In this document: positions 7,502 through 33,488 of the stretch, piece by piece
How the letters are laid out: every line of letters starts with the position of its first letter
How positions within the stretch are numbered: position 1 is the stretch's first letter
Source of the DNA: an uncultured bacterium
GTDB lineage: Bacteria; Zixibacteria; MSB-5A5; SM1-73
Length of the DNA stretch: 64,000 nucleotides
Assembly (NCBI GenBank): GCA_965369445.1
Contig: CBDUQU010000001.1
Location: 1,614 to 65,613 of the forward strand
Direction: 5' to 3'
Notes under the pieces: generated by a model
Seen by the model: the letters and a program-made list of their open reading frames with translations, nothing else
What the model was told of the DNA's origin: nothing
Database searches by the model: none
Program-made: the position numbers and the translations under genes

Positions 7502-8416
7502 TCAAGATAATTCCCTGTCTTGAGGGGATCGCCTCTGCCGGTCAACAGTCCTCCTCAAAGCTCTAATATGCTCCGGAGTCGTCCCGCAGCAGCCCCCAAT
7601 GATTGACACGCCCAATGAGACAAGCTCTTTGGCTTTCTCCGCCATAAACTCAGGCGTCTCAGGCCAGGCAGGTCTATCGCCCCGCATTTCCGGAATACCT
7701 GCGTTGGATTGGATGATGATTGGGAGCTTGCTGTACTTCTTAAACTCTTTGGCAATCTCTATCATATTCTCAATGCCGTTGCCGCAATTCGAACCTATGA
7801 TATCGGCTCCTGCCTCTTCCAGCCCTCGCGCGGCCTCTTGGATGCTTGTGCCCATCACTGTGAAGAAACCTTTCGGCGTCAGGTCAAAGGTCATTGCCGC
7901 CATAACAGGAGTCGACGGTGAAACCGTCTTTGCCGCTCTGGTGGCGAGTGTTGCCTCCGTTAAATCGGTCATGGTCTCTATGGAGATAGCATCAACTCCG
8001 GCGCTGATGAGAGCCTTCATCTGCCTTTCAAAACTACTGTATATCTCCTCAGGCTCAGTGTCCCCATAGGGTTTTAAGAGCTTTCCACTCGGCCCGCAGG
8101 AAGCGGAGATGTAAGCACGATCCCCCACGACCTTTCTCACCGCCAGGACGGCATTTCTGTTTATCTTTTCTGTTTTGCCGTCCAACGAATGGAGCGCAAG
8201 CCGCAAAGGCGAAGCGCCGAAGGTATTGGTCTGGATTATGTCCGCTCCTGCTTCCAGATAGAGACGGGCGATTTCCTCGAGCACCTCGGGACGGGTGAGA
8301 TTAAAAGACTCCGGCGGCTCACCTGGCTTGAGACCGTGATCCATCAGCATAGTCCCCATGGCGCCGTCGGCGACCAGTATCTCGCCGTCTTTTAACCGCT
8401 CAAGCAGATTTTTCAT
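7502..8416 (-). CDS. homocysteine S-methyltransferase domain protein (MetH N-terminal Hcy-binding module, stand-alone)
   Basis: Starts MKNLLERLKDGEILVADGAMGTMLM. Cys ligands in ...SASCGP... and GGCCGTTPEHI are typical of the zinc site in Pfam S-methyl_trans. I took the ATG at 8416; the track's longer ORF uses an upstream GTG inside a repeat element. Confidence 0.75.
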   Translation of the reverse strand: MKNLLERLKDGEILVADGAMGTMLMDHGLKPGEPPESFNLTRPEVLEEIARLYLEAGADIIQTNTFGASPLRLALHSLDGKTEKINRNAVLAVRKVVGDRAYISASCGPSGKLLKPYGDTEPEEIYSSFERQMKALISAGVDAISIETMTDLTEATLATRAAKTVSPSTPVMAAMTFDLTPKGFFTVMGTSIQEAARGLEEAGADIIGSNCGNGIENMIEIAKEFKKYSKLPIIIQSNAGIPEMRGDRPAWPETPEFMAEKAKELVSLGVSIIGGCCGTTPEHIRALRRTVDRQRRSPQDRELS

Positions 8417-8728: not shown

Positions 8729-9376
8729 TTAATCTGACTCGTTTGCCTTTGTCAGTTTCTTGACACACTCCACTGCGTTAGTGCTGTCGTAACCGTACCC
8801 GTCGGCTCCTATCTGTCGCGCGAATTCCTCCGATACGGGCGCTCCACCGATTATTGTTCTAATCTTGCCTGTCAGACCTTTTTCCTTTAATAGCTCTAAG
8901 GTTCGCTTCATAACCGGCATAGTCGTCGTGAGAAGAGCAGACATCCCGATAATGGAAGCGCCCTCTGTCCTGGCAGCCTCCACAAATTTCTCAGGCGAAA
9001 CGTCGTTGCCCAGGTCGATGACTTCAAAGCCTGCGCCTTTCAGCATGATTCCCACCAGATTCTTACCTATGTCGTGCAGATCACCCTGAACCGAGCCAAT
9101 TACCACCTTCCCTACAGTGGGTATCCCCTCCTTGAGGAACAGCGGCCTGAGCACGTCCATCCCTGCATACATCGCCTTTGCAGCAAGCAGTACCTGCGGA
9201 AGGAAGATCTCGTGAGCCTTGTACCTCTCCCCTATTATGTTCATGCCTCCAATCAGGCCCTCATCCAGTATTTCCTTCGGCGGTACTTTTTGTTCTACTG
9301 CCTGTCTGGTCAGCTCAGATACTTTTTCGCCATCGCCTTGCTGTAACCGTTCGGAAATCTCGTTTAGTATCTCCAT
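8729..9376 (-). CDS. corrinoid (cobalamin)-binding protein, B12-binding_2 cap plus Rossmann B12 domain
   Basis: The DxHxxG cobalamin-ligand motif is present (VQGDLHDIGKNLV), and the Rossmann fold follows (GFEVIDLG...). The start overlaps the upstream gene's stop as TAATG (translational coupling). Confidence 0.8.
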   Translation of the reverse strand: MEILNEISERLQQGDGEKVSELTRQAVEQKVPPKEILDEGLIGGMNIIGERYKAHEIFLPQVLLAAKAMYAGMDVLRPLFLKEGIPTVGKVVIGSVQGDLHDIGKNLVGIMLKGAGFEVIDLGNDVSPEKFVEAARTEGASIIGMSALLTTTMPVMKRTLELLKEKGLTGKIRTIIGGAPVSEEFARQIGADGYGYDSTNAVECVKKLTKANESD

Positions 9377-14145: not shown

Positions 14146-14194
14146 CACTCGTGGGTTGGAGGCCTCGTGCGCCCGACACCATCAAACCCTCTAA

Positions 14195-14258
14195 ACTCAC
14201 CCCCCTTAATCCCCCTCTCTTCTTAAGAGAGGGGGCACGGGGGTGAGTTCTCTGCTTA
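14195..14258 (+). terminator. nested GC-rich hairpin (ACTCACCCCC...GGGGGTGAGT around CCCTCTC/GAGAGGG) followed by TTCTCTGCTT
   Basis: Inverted repeats read in the sequence immediately after the S41 peptidase stop. Confidence 0.4.
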
Positions 14259-14391
14259 GGATAGCGGTTGCCCAGACGCCCGGACGGGCCCGTCTGGGGG
14301 CACGTCCGCGCATCCCTACCCTTTTTCTCCGGGCAAGAGTGCAACTCCTGCCCGAGCTCAGAACTTGTGTAACCCTGAAGAGGAGGAAATC

Positions 14392-15870: not shown

Positions 15871-15961
15871 AAGTCGAAGAGCTTCTGTGCCTGCCAGGTT
15901 CCTTGATCTGGTCCCGCATTTTGCGGGATCGGGTCGGGGGACCCGACGGGCACGCAACATT

Positions 15962-16153
15962 TCATATAGAATCCAGTTCTACATATGCATCTTCTTTGCC
16001 TTTTTCTCTATCTTTTCGTGCTTGCTTGAGATCTTCGATGGCCTTCTTATCAAGATCTAATCCTAACAGCTCTTCTATTTCTTTATACTCCTTCCAGGGA
16101 ATAATCACTTCGGTTGGCTTGCCTTTTTCATTTACCACAATTTTCTTGTGCAC
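15962..16153 (-). CDS. small Phd/YefM-like antitoxin-type protein
   Basis: 63 aa, KPTEVIIPWKEYKEIEELLG...AIEDLKQARKDREKGK, in the Phd/YefM pattern (beta-strand then EEY..LEE). Very low GC. Confidence 0.45.
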   Translation of the reverse strand: MHKKIVVNEKGKPTEVIIPWKEYKEIEELLGLDLDKKAIEDLKQARKDREKGKEDAYVELDSI

Positions 16154-16193
16154 CGTAACCGTAGCTTCACCTCTTTTCTTTTTAATTATACCT

Positions 16194-17013
16194 AACGTTT
16201 GAACTCAGCGGTTTAAAAGCATTAGCTTTTAATCCGCTGAAGCGAATTGTTATTTGGTTTCTTTGATATTCCTAGTTTTTTGCAAATCCATTTTTCATAT
16301 TTTTTATCAATTGAAATTATACATCTATCCCAATGATCTTTTTCATCAATTTCTAAAGCTTCGTCATATTTTCTGATAAAATCTGATATAGAAATGTTGT
16401 CTGCTAGTACTTTTGCTTTAGTGCGTACCTGTGATGGCAGTTCGCTAAAGCTAATTGTTGACTTTTCAAGAATTATTCGGAAATATATTTTCTCTGCCTC
16501 AGAAACATTTTGCAGATTGGCGGATAATCTTTCCTCTACGGAATAATATCGTTTAGGAAGTTCCTTTTCTAGCTTTGATGGCAATTCATCAATGTTTTTA
16601 TATCTTATTTGTACTAGACCTGATAAATTAGACGGAAGATGTTTTTGATAGCTCCCCTTTTTGGTTTCTCGAATAAGCAATATTACATTTAATTGCTTAG
16701 CCAGGGCATACCCTAGCTCGATGTGGACATTTCGATTTTGGGATTTTGTTTCGAAGACGCAAAAAGCGCTTCTGTCCATTTGTTTTATCAACTCTTCCCA
16801 TAGCCACTTACCTGCATCAACAAATGGGGTTATTTCCATATTCTGTTTTGCTAAAAATTGTTTTACTTTCTTGTATAGTTTTTGGCCGCGAGAGTTTTTT
16901 TTAAATTCATGTCCATAGAAACATTTATGGTAATCTTTTAAATTTGTCTTTTTTGGTGAAAGCATTTCTTGTTCCTTTCAATTTTATTCTCACACAACGC
17001 TTGAACTGAGCGG
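16194..17013. repeat. 18-bp imperfect direct repeats (AACGTTTGAACTCAGCGG at 16194-16211; AACGCTTGAACTGAGCGG at 16996-17013) bracketing the TIR/NDT-like gene
   Basis: Read directly; 16/18 identical and in the same orientation. Confidence 0.6.
16222..16965 (-). CDS. TIR-like / nucleoside 2-deoxyribosyltransferase-like domain protein with an uncharacterised C-terminal half
   Basis: 247 aa at about 33% GC. The N-terminal 120 aa follow the flavodoxin-like TIR/NDT pattern (FYGHEF...FVDAGKWLWEELIKQMDRSAFCVFETKS...NVHIELGYALAKQLNVILLI, with an ELGYA motif as in the NDT family). The C-terminal 120 aa have no recognisable family. Confidence 0.45.
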   Translation of the reverse strand: MLSPKKTNLKDYHKCFYGHEFKKNSRGQKLYKKVKQFLAKQNMEITPFVDAGKWLWEELIKQMDRSAFCVFETKSQNRNVHIELGYALAKQLNVILLIRETKKGSYQKHLPSNLSGLVQIRYKNIDELPSKLEKELPKRYYSVEERLSANLQNVSEAEKIYFRIILEKSTISFSELPSQVRTKAKVLADNISISDFIRKYDEALEIDEKDHWDRCIISIDKKYEKWICKKLGISKKPNNNSLQRIKS

Positions 17014-17230
17014 CGACGGGTGGCCCGGCCTGTTCATCAGGCCGGGTTTATCATCGTCCTCACTCGACAGACCAGCGTCAGGGGCACAGGGCCCCAGATC
17101 TACCACTTCGGCCGACCCCAGGAAATGGACCGACAATCAAATCTACAGTTGACCCTCCCTAATGTCAAGTTATTTTGAGCAGGTTTAGCGTCAGTATCGA
17201 CGAACTGGCGCTGGGATATGCCGACCTCAC

Positions 17231-17395
17231 CTAAGCCCCTTTCTTCATCATTGTTAGAAATGAAGACCGGAGCGTATCGCTCATAAGGGCCTTTTTCACC
17301 GGCGGCAGTTTCAGGAATCCGCCGATGAAGCCGCGCATGAACGAGTGAGTGATGCTCTGCGGAATTCCCTTAGGTGGGAAGGGGAAGGGTTTATA
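17231..17395 (-). pseudogene. 3' relic (last ~54 codons plus stop) of a paralog of the 4Fe-4S protein gene at 32232..33488
   Basis: About 85% nucleotide identity to 32235-32360. In-frame translation gives ...PQSITHSFMRGFIGGFLKLPPVKKALMSDTLRSSFLTMMKKGA*, against ...PQSITHSFMRGFIGGFLRLAPVKKALMSDVLRSSFLGMMNKGA* in the intact gene. There is no start codon; an in-frame TGA lies immediately upstream, at the edge of an 11-bp-stem hairpin. Confidence 0.6.
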
Positions 17396-17478
17396 TCAGA
17401 AGGGAACCAGAACCCTTCCCCTTGGTTTGGGGGGCACTTTTTTAACGCGTCTACTACTCCACTTGCTCAGGGCTCAGG

Positions 17479-19573: not shown

Positions 19574-20185
19574 TTAGCTCGCTGCTTCCGGTGCAGCGTC
19601 CGCCGCGGCACGTTTCGATCTCGAGGCCACCGTCCCTTTTTCAACCAGCCGATCGAGCACCAGGTCTGCCGGAACGGCTTGACCCTTGGCCAGGGCTCTC
19701 ATCATGGCGTCGGATAGCTCCTCCGGGGTGAATGGCTTGGGCACGTAATCGGATACCCCGGCCCTCATGGCTTTGATCGAGGTTTCGACCGAGGGATAGC
19801 CGGTAATCAGAATGACCGCCATGTTAGGATTTTCCTTCTTTATTCTTCTGGCTACTTCAATCCCATCGATCTCCGGCATCTTCCAGTCAGCGATCAACAC
19901 GTCGAATTCACTGCTCTTGGCCTTGCTCAAGGCCTCCTCTCCGGACAAAGCCACATCCACCTTGTAGCCTTCCCGGGTCAGGATCTTCTTGCAACTGTTG
20001 CACACAGTCTGCTCGTCGTCCACCACCAGGACGCTGGCGGCCGATCTGGCGGTGGCAGCAAGCGCAACAGCAGGTCGGGCAGAAGCGGTCATCTCCACCC
20101 TCTCCTCTACCCTCTTACCTCGTCTGACCAGAACATCGATCAATATGGCCGCTATGAACGTGAACACTACCAACAAAGCTACCAT
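19574..20185 (-). CDS. membrane-anchored single-domain response-regulator receiver (REC) protein
   Basis: N-terminal TM helix, then a CheY-like REC domain (VLVVDDE...DVLIADWKMPEIDG...ITGYPSVE...KPF). Confidence 0.65.
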   Translation of the reverse strand: MVALLVVFTFIAAILIDVLVRRGKRVEERVEMTASARPAVALAATARSAASVLVVDDEQTVCNSCKKILTREGYKVDVALSGEEALSKAKSSEFDVLIADWKMPEIDGIEVARRIKKENPNMAVILITGYPSVETSIKAMRAGVSDYVPKPFTPEELSDAMMRALAKGQAVPADLVLDRLVEKGTVASRSKRAAADAAPEAAS

Positions 20186-20221
20186 TTCTCACTCCTTTTG
20201 TTTTGGCTGTCATTTGCTGAA

Positions 20222-20890
20222 TCAGTCCAGGGGTCTTTTCCCGGCAAGCGCTTTGACAATGCCAGCGAACACGGTGAAAATCACTATCGGACCCAGGGCG
20301 ATGAAGAATAGCCTGGAAAAAACCGGGGCTAAGACGGATTTGAAGACGAACTTTATCGGACCGACCTTAGGCTCTTCTGCAGGCATAGGAGCCACCGCCG
20401 GAGCGGTCACGGCTTCTTCCCTGACCACCTCTGCCACCATGGGCTTAGCCTTCGGGCTTACCACCCCTTTTTCGATCAACCGATCCAGCACCAAATCTGT
20501 CGGTACAGCCTGACCTTTGGCCAGGGCTCTGATCATGGCGTCGGACAGCTCTTCCGGGGTGAAGGGCTTCGGCACATAGTCGGATACCCCGGACCTGATG
20601 GCTTCAATCGAGGTCTCCACCGAGGGATAGCCGGTGATCAATATCACCGCAATCTCGGGATTCTCCCTCTTGATTCTTCTGGCCACCTCCATTCCATCCA
20701 TCTCCGGCATCTTCCAATCCGAGATGACCACGTCGAATCCGTTTCTTTTGATCTTGCTCAACGCCTCCTCGCCGGACAAAGCCACATCCACGTTGTAGCC
20801 TTCCCGGATCAGGATCTTCCTGCAGCTGGAGCAGACGGTCTTTTCGTCATCCACCACCAGGACATTCGGTTTACGTTTCATTTTAATCAC
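20222..20890 (-). CDS. REC-domain protein with a C-terminal membrane anchor
   Basis: Paralog of the preceding gene (VLVVDDE...VVISDWKMPEMDG...). The C-terminal hydrophobic tail is FSRLFFIALGPIVIFTVFAGIV. Confidence 0.65.
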   Translation of the reverse strand: MIKMKRKPNVLVVDDEKTVCSSCRKILIREGYNVDVALSGEEALSKIKRNGFDVVISDWKMPEMDGMEVARRIKRENPEIAVILITGYPSVETSIEAIRSGVSDYVPKPFTPEELSDAMIRALAKGQAVPTDLVLDRLIEKGVVSPKAKPMVAEVVREEAVTAPAVAPMPAEEPKVGPIKFVFKSVLAPVFSRLFFIALGPIVIFTVFAGIVKALAGKRPLD

Positions 20891-20895
20891 TCCCT

Positions 20896-21912
20896 TCAGT
20901 CAGCCCCCTGGGGGCTAACATGACAAAATAGAGGTTTCACCACCGCGCCCAGGATAATGGGCAACAAAGCCGGGAAGAAAAGCCGAGAGGCCAAAGCAGA
21001 CAGGAAGAGCTTTCCTATGGGGACCTTAGCCTGGTGATGCTCTTTCCCCAACCTTCCGGTTGGTTCCGGCTCTGGTTTTTCCTTTATCTCCAGTTCTGTT
21101 TTGACGCTTAGTCCTAAACCCGGGGGAATCACTCTATGTTCAGAATTCAGTTCATGTCTCGCCTGGTCTGACGGAATGGAGACATTGCCTGACCAGTTTT
21201 TTAGATCCTCTTCTAAGTAGAAAGGTTCCAGTTGAACGATCCATCCCTTTCCGAATGGATCTTTGTTGATCAAGTCGGTATTGAAGTTGATCTCATAGTT
21301 GATTTTGACCAGCCGGCCACGAACGGGCACGAGAAGTTTGTGCATCTGCTTGTCGGAAGCCAGTATCCTGATAAACAGTCTTCCTTGTTCGACCCTGCTC
21401 TGGTGACAGGGTAAGTCGACGTAAAGGATGTCGCCCACCGATTCCCTGAACAGGTTGTTTACCCCCACCTTGACAGTGCCGTTCTCCTCTATCTTGGCCC
21501 AGATATACTTCTGATAATGCAGCAGGTCTGTCCTTCCGCTCTTTCGCTCCTGCAGGGCCTTTCTTAGCACTTGCGTTAATTGATCAGGGCTGAGAGGCTT
21601 GGGAACGTAGTTGGAAACGCCCAATCTCATCGCCTGGACCGCGGATTCCACTGACGGATATCCGGTTATCATTATCACCACCATATCCGGATGATTCTTT
21701 TTCACGATCCTCAGGACCTCCATCCCGTCGATCTCCGGCATTTTCCAGTCGGCGATGAGCACGTCATATTTATCCTCTTCCACTTTCTTGAGGGCTTCTC
21801 GTCCGTTCAGAGCAATTTGCACATTGTGTCCTGCTCGGCTCAATATCTTCCGGCAGCTATTGCAAACTATCTCCTCATCATCCACCACTAATACATTTGC
21901 TCGGTACGGCAT
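20896..21912 (-). CDS. REC domain, GcvH-like (glycine-cleavage H / lipoyl-like) domain, then a C-terminal membrane anchor
   Basis: REC domain at the N-terminus. The central KYIWAKIEENGTVKVGVNNLFRESVGDILYVDLP...LINKDPFGKGWIVQL matches the GcvH pattern (E.G...VGITD.A...LGDIVFVELP ... DPYGEGWL). The C-terminal tail is ASRLFFPALLPIILGAVV. Confidence 0.6.
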   Translation of the reverse strand: MPYRANVLVVDDEEIVCNSCRKILSRAGHNVQIALNGREALKKVEEDKYDVLIADWKMPEIDGMEVLRIVKKNHPDMVVIMITGYPSVESAVQAMRLGVSNYVPKPLSPDQLTQVLRKALQERKSGRTDLLHYQKYIWAKIEENGTVKVGVNNLFRESVGDILYVDLPCHQSRVEQGRLFIRILASDKQMHKLLVPVRGRLVKINYEINFNTDLINKDPFGKGWIVQLEPFYLEEDLKNWSGNVSIPSDQARHELNSEHRVIPPGLGLSVKTELEIKEKPEPEPTGRLGKEHHQAKVPIGKLFLSALASRLFFPALLPIILGAVVKPLFCHVSPQGAD

Positions 21913-23048
21913 CTCCTATCACCTGCCTTTCTGTTCTTTCCGCTTCTCCTATAGCGCAAGAGATGTGCCGATTGTGACTTTTTTCACAAAGATTCGCCAA
22001 GCCTTTCAGTTAATGGCTTGAAATATAAGAGCTTATGTTTCGTGCCGAAGAACGAGGATGGGTGTATTCTGCAGATTCAGCCGAGTTGGTGCATGTCAAA
22101 GTTATGCACCGAAATCAGAGGGTTTTGTTGAGATACAAAGACTTAGGAGGAATTCGCGGTGTATAGGAAAAATATATAGTGAATACGTTTCATATACGTT
22201 TTTAGCACGTAGGTCCGAAATCCTCCGCCTCGGGCAGCGATTTCAGACATGATAAACTTCCCTCCCTCGATGGTTCGACAAGCTCACCACAAGTGGGAGG
22301 GAATAAAAGGGAGGGTGAAATGAGGTATTCTCTCGTTGGTAACGGACACCTTGTCCGTTACCCTTCAACTTCGTTCCCTTCGGGTCTGCCCAGACGGATC
22401 CGTAGGACAGCCTGCTTGACAGTTTCTCTTGTAGCCGCAGACTTCAGTCTGCGGGGGCGGATGGCGGGGGGCTCACAGGGTGATTGTCGGGCACCCCAAC
22501 GGCCCTTCGACAAGCTCAGGGCGGGATCGCCCTACAGGCCCATCCGGGCACCCCAACCCGCAAGTCTGGACTTGCTGGACATACTGGACTTGCTGGACTT
22601 TGTTTTTGGTTTTTTTTATGGTTCGAAGTCCGGGGTCGAGATAGAAGATCGTTATCCCGGAGGGGGGCGTTGGCCCCTGGCTGGGTTTTGGTGTTTGTGA
22701 ACCCGACGGCGGAGAGGGACCGACCCACCGGGTGACAAGTGAGCCGGTTTTCTTTGGAGTTGGTATGAAGCAGATGATTCATATGATTCTTATCCTCCCG
22801 AAAGTTACGGCTCATACAATAAACAATCGTCTCCTCAATAATACTGGAGCAATCTCTTTCACCATCAAAGTTCTTTTGAATTTGGTCTTTGTGGTAAGAG
22901 AGACACGCATTGGCGGTCTTTTTGTCCCCCTGAGAAGGGGTTCACCCTGAAGGGGGAAATCGAAGATCCGTAGAACAGGGGGTTATTGTATTTCTCCCCC
23001 TGATAAGGGGGACACAGGGGGTTCCATGTTGATTTCGTACCATTTTCC

Positions 23049-32057: not shown

Positions 32058-32231
32058 AGGCGCTCCCTCAATTAGTGAATTATTTCACAAGCTTCCACCA
32101 GTTATACGGAAATTTGAAACCCAAAAGCTAACTCCAAAAGGCAACTGCTTTGTTAGGGGGTTCGCGCCACGGATGAACCGGGACGTGAAGACACCATTCG
32201 CATTTCATAATGCCTAACCCTGCTCTTGTTT

Positions 32232-33488
32232 CTAAGCCCCCTTGTTCATCATCCCGAGGAATGAGGAGCGAAGCACGTCACTCATAAGGGCCTTCTTCAC
32301 CGGCGCCAACCTCAGAAATCCGCCGATGAAACCACGCATGAACGAGTGGGTAATGCTCTGGGGGTTGTCAAACATTAGGTTTTGCAGCGTGCCTCTCTCC
32401 AGGCATTGGAGAATCACCCGTTCAAAGGTGTCCTCCGGATGGAACACTCTTTGCTTGCGCTTCACCAGTTTCAGCGCGCCGGTCGGACATTTCAGGGCAC
32501 ACACGCCGCAACCAATACACAGAGATGTGTCTATCCCTGGATTTCCTTCGGGAAGCATCCGGATGGCATCGATGGGGCAGGATTCCGCACACATCCCACA
32601 ATCTGTACATTTCTCCTCGTCACGTTCAGGGATGAAAGAGGAAGTGACGACCATACTTGTATAGCCGAACTTGCTTATACCTAACAGGACGTTGCAGCAA
32701 CACTCACAGCAGTGACAGATAAAAGAGATTCCTTGTTTCACATTATCAGCGCAGAACACCAGCCCCATCTCTTTAGAGCGGGCCAGGTTTTCCAGCATCT
32801 CCGCTTTGGAAACCTCTTTCCCCAGGTTGTGCCGGATCAGGTAATCAGCCGCGGCATCGAAAGAGGAGCAGGTCTCCAGCGGCACGTCGCACTTCTTCTC
32901 CCCCACGTGCATTTTCTCGTGACGACAGGAACAGATGCCGATGGAGAATTTCTTGGCCCCTTCGATGATCGCCGTCGCCTTTTCGTAATCTAAGACTTCA
33001 ACATATCCTGAAGTATCTATCGCATCCTCGTGTGGCAGCGTCCGCAAGGGAGAGATTTTTTCACCATGTTTGAAGTTTGCCGCATAAAACGTCGACTCAT
33101 CTTGTAGATAAGTGTGAAAAAGTCTGGCCCATTCTTTGGTGTTCAGGTTTTCACCTGTTCTCATCATGGTGAATTCAAATATTCCAACGACCAGCGGGGA
33201 AGGCATGTAGTGATATTCACCATGCATCCAGAGGTCCATCACCAGGCCCTTGGCACACAGGCCGTCCAGTAGCTTCTGCAGCTTGGAGCGGTCGTACTTG
33301 GTGATTTTCTCAATTCGATTTAGATTGGCCAGGCCGTAAGGCATCTTCACGATAACATCGGCTTCGTCTGTGGAATAGAGTTCCTTCAGAATGGAATGAA
33401 ACGTTTCATTCCACGGCGTCCTCATCGTCAAGTTATCGATCTTCTTACCGAGCTTTCGGTAGATGTCCTTCCCAACCATGTGTCCCAT
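32232..33488 (-). CDS. 4Fe-4S cluster-binding protein with a large uncharacterised N-terminal domain
   Basis: Cys-rich CSCRHEKMH, ICHCCECCCN and two ferredoxin CxxCxxCxxxCP motifs (CTDCGMCAESCP; CIGCGVCALKCP). First gene of the operon with the kinase and regulator. Confidence 0.65.
   Translation of the reverse strand: MGHMVGKDIYRKLGKKIDNLTMRTPWNETFHSILKELYSTDEADVIVKMPYGLANLNRIEKITKYDRSKLQKLLDGLCAKGLVMDLWMHGEYHYMPSPLVVGIFEFTMMRTGENLNTKEWARLFHTYLQDESTFYAANFKHGEKISPLRTLPHEDAIDTSGYVEVLDYEKATAIIEGAKKFSIGICSCRHEKMHVGEKKCDVPLETCSSFDAAADYLIRHNLGKEVSKAEMLENLARSKEMGLVFCADNVKQGISFICHCCECCCNVLLGISKFGYTSMVVTSSFIPERDEEKCTDCGMCAESCPIDAIRMLPEGNPGIDTSLCIGCGVCALKCPTGALKLVKRKQRVFHPEDTFERVILQCLERGTLQNLMFDNPQSITHSFMRGFIGGFLRLAPVKKALMSDVLRSSFLGMMNKGA

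Follow-up and report, generated by a model that had tools for sequence, protein, structure and literature searches.

The systems closest to the locus reported here are the cassettes of sedentary chromosomal integrons. The recombination site of such a cassette, attC (the 59-base element), is made up of an R'' box (RYYYAAC), an L'' box, a variable centre, an L' box and an R' box (GTTRRRY), and is usually about 57–141 nt long. The integron integrase, IntI, binds attC as a single-strand hairpin, in which R'' pairs with R' and L'' with L' and a base is left extrahelical, and it cuts between the G and the TT of R'. Recombination between adjacent attC excises an ORF and one attC in circular form, and this circle can integrate again at another place.

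Clusters of at least two attC with no nearby intI are termed CALIN, and about 95% of these have no intI pseudogene nearby either (Cury et al. 2016, PMC4889954). A single attC with a CDS, with no integrase or other att site nearby, is a SALIN (Loot et al., preprint 10.1101/2022.09.11.507474). Toxin-antitoxin cassettes of the RelBE/ParE type have also been described in chromosomal integrons (Richard et al. 2024, PMC13108822).

Here we investigate a locus within a 64,000-nucleotide stretch of DNA (the window) from an uncultured bacterium, in which a gene of 247 codons is bracketed by short direct repeats. Is this gene carried on an exchangeable single-gene cassette, as a first-pass annotation had proposed? 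And, if so, can the cassette still move? We give a probability of roughly 85% to the reading, taken as a whole, that this is a stranded, decayed integron cassette that is bounded by attC arms and is now an immobile remnant of a larger array. Of its parts, the identity of the repeats as attC arms on either side of a cassette is close to certain, and the present state of the cassette as a remnant unable to move is likely. The features of the locus are listed in Table 1.

The two copies of the repeat, AACGTTTGAACTCAGCGG at 16194–16211 (copy B) and AACGCTTGAACTGAGCGG at 16996–17013 (copy A), are identical at 16 of 18 positions, as had been noted at first pass. A degenerate search allowing up to three mismatches finds only these two copies of the 18-mer in the 64 kb. 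The expectation from shuffled sequence is 0.20, and two or more copies occurred in 0 of 100 shuffles; the two 18-mers are real and beyond chance. Similarity between the copies extends leftwards, over 39 nt at 72%. Copy A begins 31 nt before the ATG of the 247-aa ORF and copy B ends 11 nt past its stop codon. When read on the minus strand, the motif is CCGCTSAGTTCAARCGTT. Copy B continues with AGGT and copy A with GTGT, which gives both of them a GTTRRRY-like end. By their sequence, the 18-mers are the L'–spacer–R' arm of a family of integron attC on the minus strand.

This family is widespread. The 18-mer pattern was scanned against one genome per species, a collection of 596 Gb, and matched at least 134 places in at least 119 stretches. 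By our own arithmetic, about 70 single matches are expected by chance (596 × 10^9 × 2 strands × 4^-16 × 2^-2), and many of the singletons within ordinary genes are therefore noise. Among the matches listed, 73 of 134 have the sequence YTAAC-AAWTC-ACTCCAGCGGAC, which was not selected for, 25–100 nt upstream, at the distance seen in an attC, and in most of the matches AGRY comes next, completing GTTRRRY. Arrays of two to six copies, about 340–1,770 bp apart, are found among the same matches at L036, L042, L062, L072, L091, L103 and L105, with six copies in L062, four in L103 and three each in L042 and L091. A tyrosine recombinase is close to the sites in 13 of the matching loci listed, and all eight of the site-adjacent recombinases tested are integron integrases (NCBIfam TIGR02249, 397–467 bits, cut-off 265). 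At L042 the integrase is on the strand opposite the array, the orientation of a textbook integron. Arrays of the family adjoin integron integrases in many phyla. The first-pass suggestion that the repeats are in the style of integron attC sites is borne out by these arrays, and the search that it had advised, for the 18-mer with other cargo, finds it both in arrays and before dozens of unrelated genes in other phyla.

In an alignment of 61 family sites from other genomes, every site has the AAC and the GTT. RNAalifold returned no consensus structure from this alignment; the canonical attC pairing was entered by hand and then checked by pair counts. It is formed in 85.7% of cells, against 22–42% with the 3' partner shifted along the alignment. 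The base of the variable stem clearly covaries, with one pair being UA, GC or CG in 15, 14 and 12 sequences, respectively. The covariance model of these 61 foreign sites (R1), from which the window was excluded, was then run unfiltered over the whole window.

One complete attC, site B, was identified, and R1 found no other credible attC anywhere in the 64 kb. A match at 32126–32158 (E 8.1) was taken as chance. Site B encloses copy B of the repeat and had also appeared in the repeat listing as inverted repeat I5. Its R' box is an exact fit to GTTRRRY; of its R'' box, compared with RYYYAAC, only the R, the last Y and the AAC fit, and two Y positions are A. Aligned to R1, site B has the L''/L' pairing, the extrahelical base, the unpaired spacer between the R and L boxes and the variable terminal stem of an attC. 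Folded as single-stranded DNA, it has energies of −15.2 and −15.6 kcal/mol for the two strands, with z of −4.9 and −5.3. Its placement is also that of an attC, at the 3' end of an ORF and in the same orientation, and its ortholog in a homologous array from another genome, L123, is the middle one of three attC. Site B thus has all of the attC features tested, in sequence and in predicted fold. From the association of the family with IntI, it is a candidate for recombination by this enzyme. Because the 66-nt hairpin reaches into the 247-aa ORF, over its stop codon and the 11 codons before it, the repeat is not strictly outside the gene. The 18-mers themselves do lie just beyond the gene, as first described; the attC to which copy B belongs overlaps its end.

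The other site, site A, encloses copy A and has its G|TT crossover between 16998 and 16997. It has the L'–R' arm of an attC and is missing the R''–L'' arm, and no attC-like hairpin forms there in folds of 98 nt or 193 nt. The L123 counterpart is complete (attC at 7916–7974, 54.6 bits). In the window, the R''–L'' arm present in L123 (GCTAACCAATCACTGGAGCGGAC...) has been replaced at 17018/17019 by unrelated GC-rich sequence, which includes a hairpin with a 9-bp stem.

Table 1. Features of the cassette locus and its junctions, in window coordinates (R1, covariance model of 61 attC from other genomes).
Feature	Position	Strand	Details
Host hairpin, not attC	15887–15953		3' of convergent serine-hydrolase (beta-lactamase family) gene; marks host side of right junction
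Truncated cassette 2, RelB-like gene	15959–16195	minus	parE and the cassette's attC missing
RelB-like antitoxin gene	15962–16153	minus	63 aa from GTG; PF18506, 28.6 bits
attC B, complete	16190–16255	minus	R1 59.1 bits, E 2.2e-14, full length
attC B, R'' box	16255–16249	minus	AAATAAC
attC B, L'' box	16243–16234	minus	followed by 16-bp central hairpin
attC B, L' box	16211–16204	minus	CCGCTGAG
attC B, R' box	16196–16190	minus	GTTAGGT
Gene cassette 1, 802 bp	16196–16997	minus	repeat spacing; 93% identical cassette between two strong attC in L123
Cassette ORF, 247 aa	16222–16965	minus	N-terminal nucleoside-2-deoxyribosyltransferase/TIR-like domain, C-terminal winged-helix domain
attC A remnant, 3' arm only	16992–17018	minus	homology to L123 attC starts at 17018; 5 nt of variable stem, L' CCGCTCAG, spacer TTCAAGC, R' GTTGTGT
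Spacer, 212 nt	17019–17230	minus	no match in relatives or L123
Pseudogene fragment	17234–17362	minus	final 43 codons only; paralog of the gene at 32232–33488 for a 418-aa Fe-S protein

The spacing of the repeats from crossover to crossover is 802 bp. This segment, from the TT after the site A crossover to the G of R' in site B, contains a short 5' UTR, the 247-aa ORF and attC B, and is a single-gene cassette.

The comparison with L123 shows what the surroundings of this cassette once may have been. From 17018 to 15959 the window (1,060 bp) is 93% identical in DNA sequence to L123 7948–9006. The homology starts in mid-attC, 5 nt before the L' box of site A, and it ends at 15959 with ...TATATGAAAT, the overlapping relB stop and parE start. 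L123 has an 81%-identical homolog of the 247-aa protein between two attC (54.6 and 62.2 bits), followed by a RelB-like gene (66 aa, with an ATG start) that overlaps a ParE toxin gene, and then by an attC at 9271–9330 (26.6 bits). In the window the corresponding ATG is ACG, and a GTG three codons later remains. No ParE-like frame is present downstream of the window relB, the homology having ended at the parE start; the RelB/ParE adjacency of a type II toxin-antitoxin pair is seen in L123 and is absent from the window. Since relB is followed in L123 by parE and its own attC, the antitoxin gene in the window is the orphan of a truncated neighbouring cassette. The small antitoxin-like gene does lie outside the repeats, as described at first pass. 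It is not the antitoxin partner of the supposed effector; rather, it is the surviving half of a separate RelB–ParE cassette that is intact in L123.

The segment shared with L123 coincides with an AT-rich island, 15959–17018, in which the GC content is 0.28–0.39 compared with 0.49–0.57 in the flanks. Both minus-strand ORFs are within it, so the island defined by composition exceeds the segment that the repeats bracket. L123 has a GC content of 0.41–0.49 and a neighbourhood unrelated to that of the window, and the shared island has a GC content of 0.34 there. With unrelated neighbourhoods and a low GC of the island in both L123 and the window, the block is foreign to both genomes. The names given to NrfD/HybB proteins that are 97–98% identical to that of the window place its host in a Candidatus Zixiibacteriota MAG. 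Transfer between phyla was considered and dropped, as the flanking genes of L123 are also Zixibacteria-like (79–81% identity to named proteins). On present sequence evidence, the island is common to two lineages of one candidate phylum.

Homologs of the 247-aa protein numbered only 21 in the search, none of them functionally named (they are unnamed or 'hypothetical protein'). Their contigs carry runs of small same-strand genes in which the neighbours differ, for example GNAT acetyltransferases, BrnT/BrnA and an HNH protein, and many of the nearby genes have no Pfam match. R1 finds attC beside the homologs in L123, L126, L127, L129 and L134–L137. Comparison with these other genomes shows that the cassette was exchangeable in the past. 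At this locus it probably no longer is, because the window has no integrase and copy A has no 5' arm: an hmmsearch of all six-frame segments of the window with a profile of the IntI proteins that adjoin family sites gave a best E of 4.2, and a motif scan was also empty. The first-pass idea of an exchangeable effector cassette is therefore supported as to past mobility, by cargo homologs between attC with varied neighbours, and probably does not hold at present, given the half site and the integrase-free window. An integrase outside the 64-kb window, or on another replicon, could act in trans on attC B.

How did the island come to be where it is? On its right side, host DNA is common to the relatives with the serine-hydrolase gene (93–79% identity) up to 15954, beyond which they diverge, according to the metagenome scan. 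The hairpin at this junction (−23.6 kcal/mol, z −4.7) is kept in the island-free relatives L138 (to 15954) and L139 (to 15942). It had been considered as a third attC and was rejected, since R1 is silent there, AAC...GTT is absent in the right orientation and the hairpin is conserved without the island. On the left side, the relatives sharing the NrfD gene (95–96% DNA identity) match down to about 17361–17372 and then have different genes in each; the homology of L157 and L161 stops at 17361–17372, just past the terminator-like hairpin of NrfD. Exactly where this homology to close relatives breaks, the pseudogene fragment begins (88% identity by tblastn over residues 376–418 of its paralog; 81% DNA identity). 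Between this fragment and attC A is the 212-nt spacer, with a GC hairpin at 17028–17050 and a promoter-like site at 17168–17140 (TTGACA, 17 nt, TAGATT; 10 of 12 positions match). This σ70-like site points at the cassette, and the number of such sites in the region is that expected by chance.

None of the serine-hydrolase and NrfD relatives has the island or any attC. As these island-free relatives have different neighbours, they provide no clean empty site; the two host flanks are adjacent only in the lineage of the window. The near-identical strains L001–L003 (98.7–100%) have an identical locus and thus give no presence/absence information. The strain-level comparison proposed at first pass was for this reason uninformative, and the evidence for mobility comes instead from a different genome. 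The only Rfam matches in the window at gathering thresholds are two tRNAs, and neither adjoins the island, which is therefore not a tRNA-targeted island. NrfD and a beta-lactamase-family protein are all that the flanks encode, and a transposase and a serine recombinase are both absent. Neither end of the island falls on a canonical G|TT crossover point. The locus is a patchwork of deletion or rearrangement junctions.

In the explanation that we favour, the two repeats are the conserved 3' arms (L' box, spacer and R' GTTRRRY) of consecutive attC on the minus strand, between which the 802-bp cassette would once have been excisable by IntI. The 1,060-bp island is then a fossil fragment of an L123-like cassette array, in which the upstream attC has lost its 5' arm and the downstream RelB–ParE cassette has been cut after relB. 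A history of array decay is what the junctions suggest. The island might instead have arrived already as a fragment, either because the integrase inserted it at a secondary genomic site (attC × attG) or because DNA that had been taken up underwent illegitimate recombination. This alternative concerns the origin of the island and not the identity of the repeats. Single attC without an integrase (SALINs) are common and IntI inserts at genomic sites (10.1101/2022.09.11.507474), no intI pseudogene is nearby, and a GTT is present right at the right junction (AAAT|GTTGCGT), all of which are consistent with such an arrival. The product of an attC × attG insertion is, however, expected to start with TTRRRY and to end with a complete attC, while at its left end the island still has the L' arm, which is upstream of the crossover, and at its right end an attC is lacking. 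With the adjacent pseudogene fragment and the breaks in synteny also pointing to deletions or rearrangements, we consider arrival as a fragment unlikely. Could the array be less decayed than it appears, with copy A belonging to a complete, divergent attC of about 184 nt that has its R'' at 17175–17169? The locus would then be a live two-site CALIN, excisable by an integrase elsewhere, and CALIN cassettes may indeed be mobilised in trans (Cury et al., PMC4889954). R1 does align over the full length of 16992–17175, including an AAATAAC box resembling R''. This alignment scores 12.6 bits (E 0.62), which it reaches solely through a 133-nt insert, and it needs four non-canonical pairs. The 193-nt single-strand fold leaves 17175 unpaired with the L'–R' arm, the comparison with L123 has the true 5' arm replaced at 17018/17019, and 184 nt exceeds the usual range for attC. 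The folding and the L123 comparison led us to reject a long site A with R'' at 17175, and a live two-site CALIN is accordingly improbable.

Other explanations would dispense with attC. Each copy is just upstream of a gene start on the minus strand, and TATAAT and a Shine-Dalgarno sequence come after copy B, as might be seen if the repeats were duplicated promoter or operator copies, such as sites for the RelB-like repressor. Yet in other phyla the 18-mer stands before dozens of genes unrelated to one another, always with a complementary upstream arm and with arrays beside IntI; the distance from TTCAAR to the −10-like box is 7–8 nt, which is not σ70-like, and the promoter scan was empty at both copies. 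We regard this explanation as very improbable, and a promoter inside the cassette that overlaps R', if there is one, would be secondary. Direct repeats that bracket an AT-rich gene also recall a target-site duplication, the ends of a MITE or transposon or the product sites of a serine recombinase, all but the transposon ends having been raised at first pass. A target duplication would be specific to the host, and this sequence recurs in many unrelated genomes. The AT-rich island runs beyond the repeats to take in relB and has no terminal inverted repeats, which speaks against a MITE or transposon, and neither a transposase nor a serine recombinase is encoded in the flanks. These readings, which we have abandoned, are scarcely credible compared with that of attC arms bounding a decayed cassette.

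The cargo of the cassette belongs, on its conserved features, with the TIR/nucleoside 2-deoxyribosyltransferase superfamily: it has the flavodoxin-like fold and the conserved catalytic acidic residue, and the core FETxxxNxNxHxELGY is invariant across the 247-aa family. Its score against the Pfam model of CAP12/Pycsar TIR domains (PF10137) is 23.7 bits, under the threshold of 24.7, and 14 of the 21 family members match the same model. An AlphaFold2 model from the 21-sequence alignment has a pLDDT of 82 and a pTM of 0.78, and its best solved matches in Foldseek are DNPH1/Rcl and the CMP N-glycosidases MilB and BcmB. Identity to these nucleoside 2-deoxyribosyltransferase N-glycosidases and to TIR domains is 11–20%. 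Unlike DNPH1/Rcl, MilB, BcmB and the CAP12/Pycsar TIR effectors, the cargo has a winged-helix fusion, and its cassette encodes neither a cyclase nor a sensor partner. PADLOC gave weak TIR-effector matches (E 7e-5 and weaker) and assigned no system.

Defence systems are often found on the cassettes of chromosomal integrons (10.1101/2024.07.02.601686), and by analogy the cargo could plausibly be an effector that targets nucleotides, in defence or as a toxin. The further suggestion that it is a new single-gene anti-phage or abortive-infection N-glycosidase effector, borne on integron cassettes among uncultured Zixibacteria and their neighbours, is tentative and at present doubtful. Between the window and L123 copies, the dN/dS of the 247-aa gene is about 1.2 (53 nonsynonymous and 11 synonymous changes), and that of relB is about 0.04 on seven changes only. 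The dN/dS of the cargo gene, its invariant core and the keeping of the ORF after decay of the array would together point to domestication of a defence cassette by the host.

With respect to the known systems, the element is of a known kind, an integron cassette, in a decayed state. It resembles the cassettes of sedentary chromosomal integrons in the R''–L''–variable–L'–R' order of site B with its GTTRRRY 3' end, in the extrahelical base in L'', in the length of 66 nt and the overlap with the ORF end, in the single ORF with a short 5' UTR, and in belonging to an attC family that adjoins IntI elsewhere. Unlike in a chromosomal integron, there is neither an intI nor a recognisable attI in the window, the upstream site is a half site and the downstream cassette is truncated; having no intI, the locus is not a complete integron. 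It is like CALINs and SALINs in being small and chromosomal, with no integrase or intI pseudogene near its attC cassette. With one complete attC and a half site, it qualifies only doubtfully as a CALIN. With one significant attC and no integrase in the 64 kb, it is strictly a SALIN plus a half site. It differs from an attC × attG insertion in that the island ends are off the canonical crossover points. The likeness to toxin-antitoxin cassettes is clearest in L123, where the RelB-like/ParE pair is a cassette of its own, with its own attC, within the array. In the window only the antitoxin gene is kept, with its ATG changed to ACG and the toxin gene and attC gone, and without the toxin gene it cannot act as an addiction module.

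Knowledge of the integron mechanism is unchanged by this locus; specialists might wish to follow up only its cargo family and its presence in Zixibacteria. What it documents is a stage in the life of a cassette, at which a fragment of an array is stranded in a chromosome and retains a single intact attC, half of another site and an antitoxin gene without its toxin. Tools whose output is limited to clusters with at least two attC might miss such remnants. Even where no integrase is visible, integron cassettes of an uncultured phylum, apparently Zixibacteria, can be correctly flagged from a short direct repeat noticed by eye. The cargo family, as yet uncharacterised, agrees with the recent view that chromosomal integrons store defence genes in their cassettes (10.1101/2024.07.02.601686).

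The cassette gene encoding the deoxyribosyltransferase/TIR-like protein of 247 aa is 93% identical at the DNA level to its counterpart on the Zixibacteria-like contig with a three-attC array (L123). The dN/dS ratio between the two copies is ~1.2, which could be a sign of diversifying or relaxed selection, and all of the family-invariant residues are retained in both. A deletion of 1 nt close to the 3' end has removed the L123 stop codon, so that the window ORF continues into attC B, the complete integron site at its 3' end, and is 10 residues longer.

The neighboring orphan antitoxin-like gene, relB, has a dN/dS of ~0.04 between the window and L123, a value based on 7 changes only. Its start codon is ATG in L123 and ACG in the window, where a GTG start remains 14 nt from the Shine-Dalgarno sequence. 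This change may represent early decay of the orphan gene.

Coordinates of the features in the window and on the compared contigs
Feature	Position	Strand	Remarks
Deoxyribosyltransferase/TIR-like gene	window 16222-16965	-	counterpart L123 8001-8714
relB start region	window 16153-16165	-	compared with L123 8803-8814
181-aa gene and homolog of 247-aa protein	L127 3906-5587; L131 568-1866		homologs 64-66% identical
Pseudogene fragment, C-terminal 43 codons	window 17234-17362	-	from a paralog of the 418-aa Fe-S (4Fe-4S-type) protein gene, 32232-33488 (-)
Perfect 13-nt inverted repeat AAGGGGAAGGGTT ... AACCCTTCCCCTT	window 17379-17423		downstream of NrfD
Three tandem response-regulator genes	window 19574-22332	-	cross-matches in BLAST against relatives
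Short intergenic stretches	window 14194-14250, 14298-14355		upstream of serine-hydrolase gene

Downstream of NrfD, the inverted repeat is kept in relatives and is probably the operon terminator. Just beyond it lies the Fe-S pseudogene fragment, and synteny with close relatives breaks exactly where this fragment starts. The content downstream of the NrfD/HybB operon (window 17361-17478) differs in each close Zixibacteria relative (L157, L159 and L161), with an Rce1-like gene, an RmuC gene, or an ORF6N gene and unknown genes found there. It thus has the look of a hotspot of variation. The three response-regulator genes, which lie upstream of Fe-S/NrfD, share 68–84% DNA identity with one another over ~300–400 nt in the BLAST cross-matches and are a local paralogous expansion. 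The stretches upstream of the serine-hydrolase gene have 81–91% matches on contigs of relatives, at positions unrelated to this locus (both strands of L141 6470-6525, and L159 2304-2361). These matches point to a short palindromic repeat scattered through these genomes.

On the contigs with the 64–66% identical homologs of the 247-aa protein (L127 and L131), a 181-aa gene without a Pfam match is located 27 nt upstream of the homolog. No attC was detected between the two genes, so cassettes of two genes may be another form in which the family moves. Identical copies of the 18-nt L'-R' arm occur in attC sites of several MAG groups (matches L004-L122), labeled Omnitrophota, Desulfobacterales/Desulfobulbia, Gammaproteobacteria, Planctomycetia, Nitrospirota, Holophagae/Thermoanaerobaculales and Burkholderiales. 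The central regions of these sites fall into a few recurring classes by length and sequence (58, 61, 75 and ~90 nt), which hints that a small number of attC lineages have spread across phyla.
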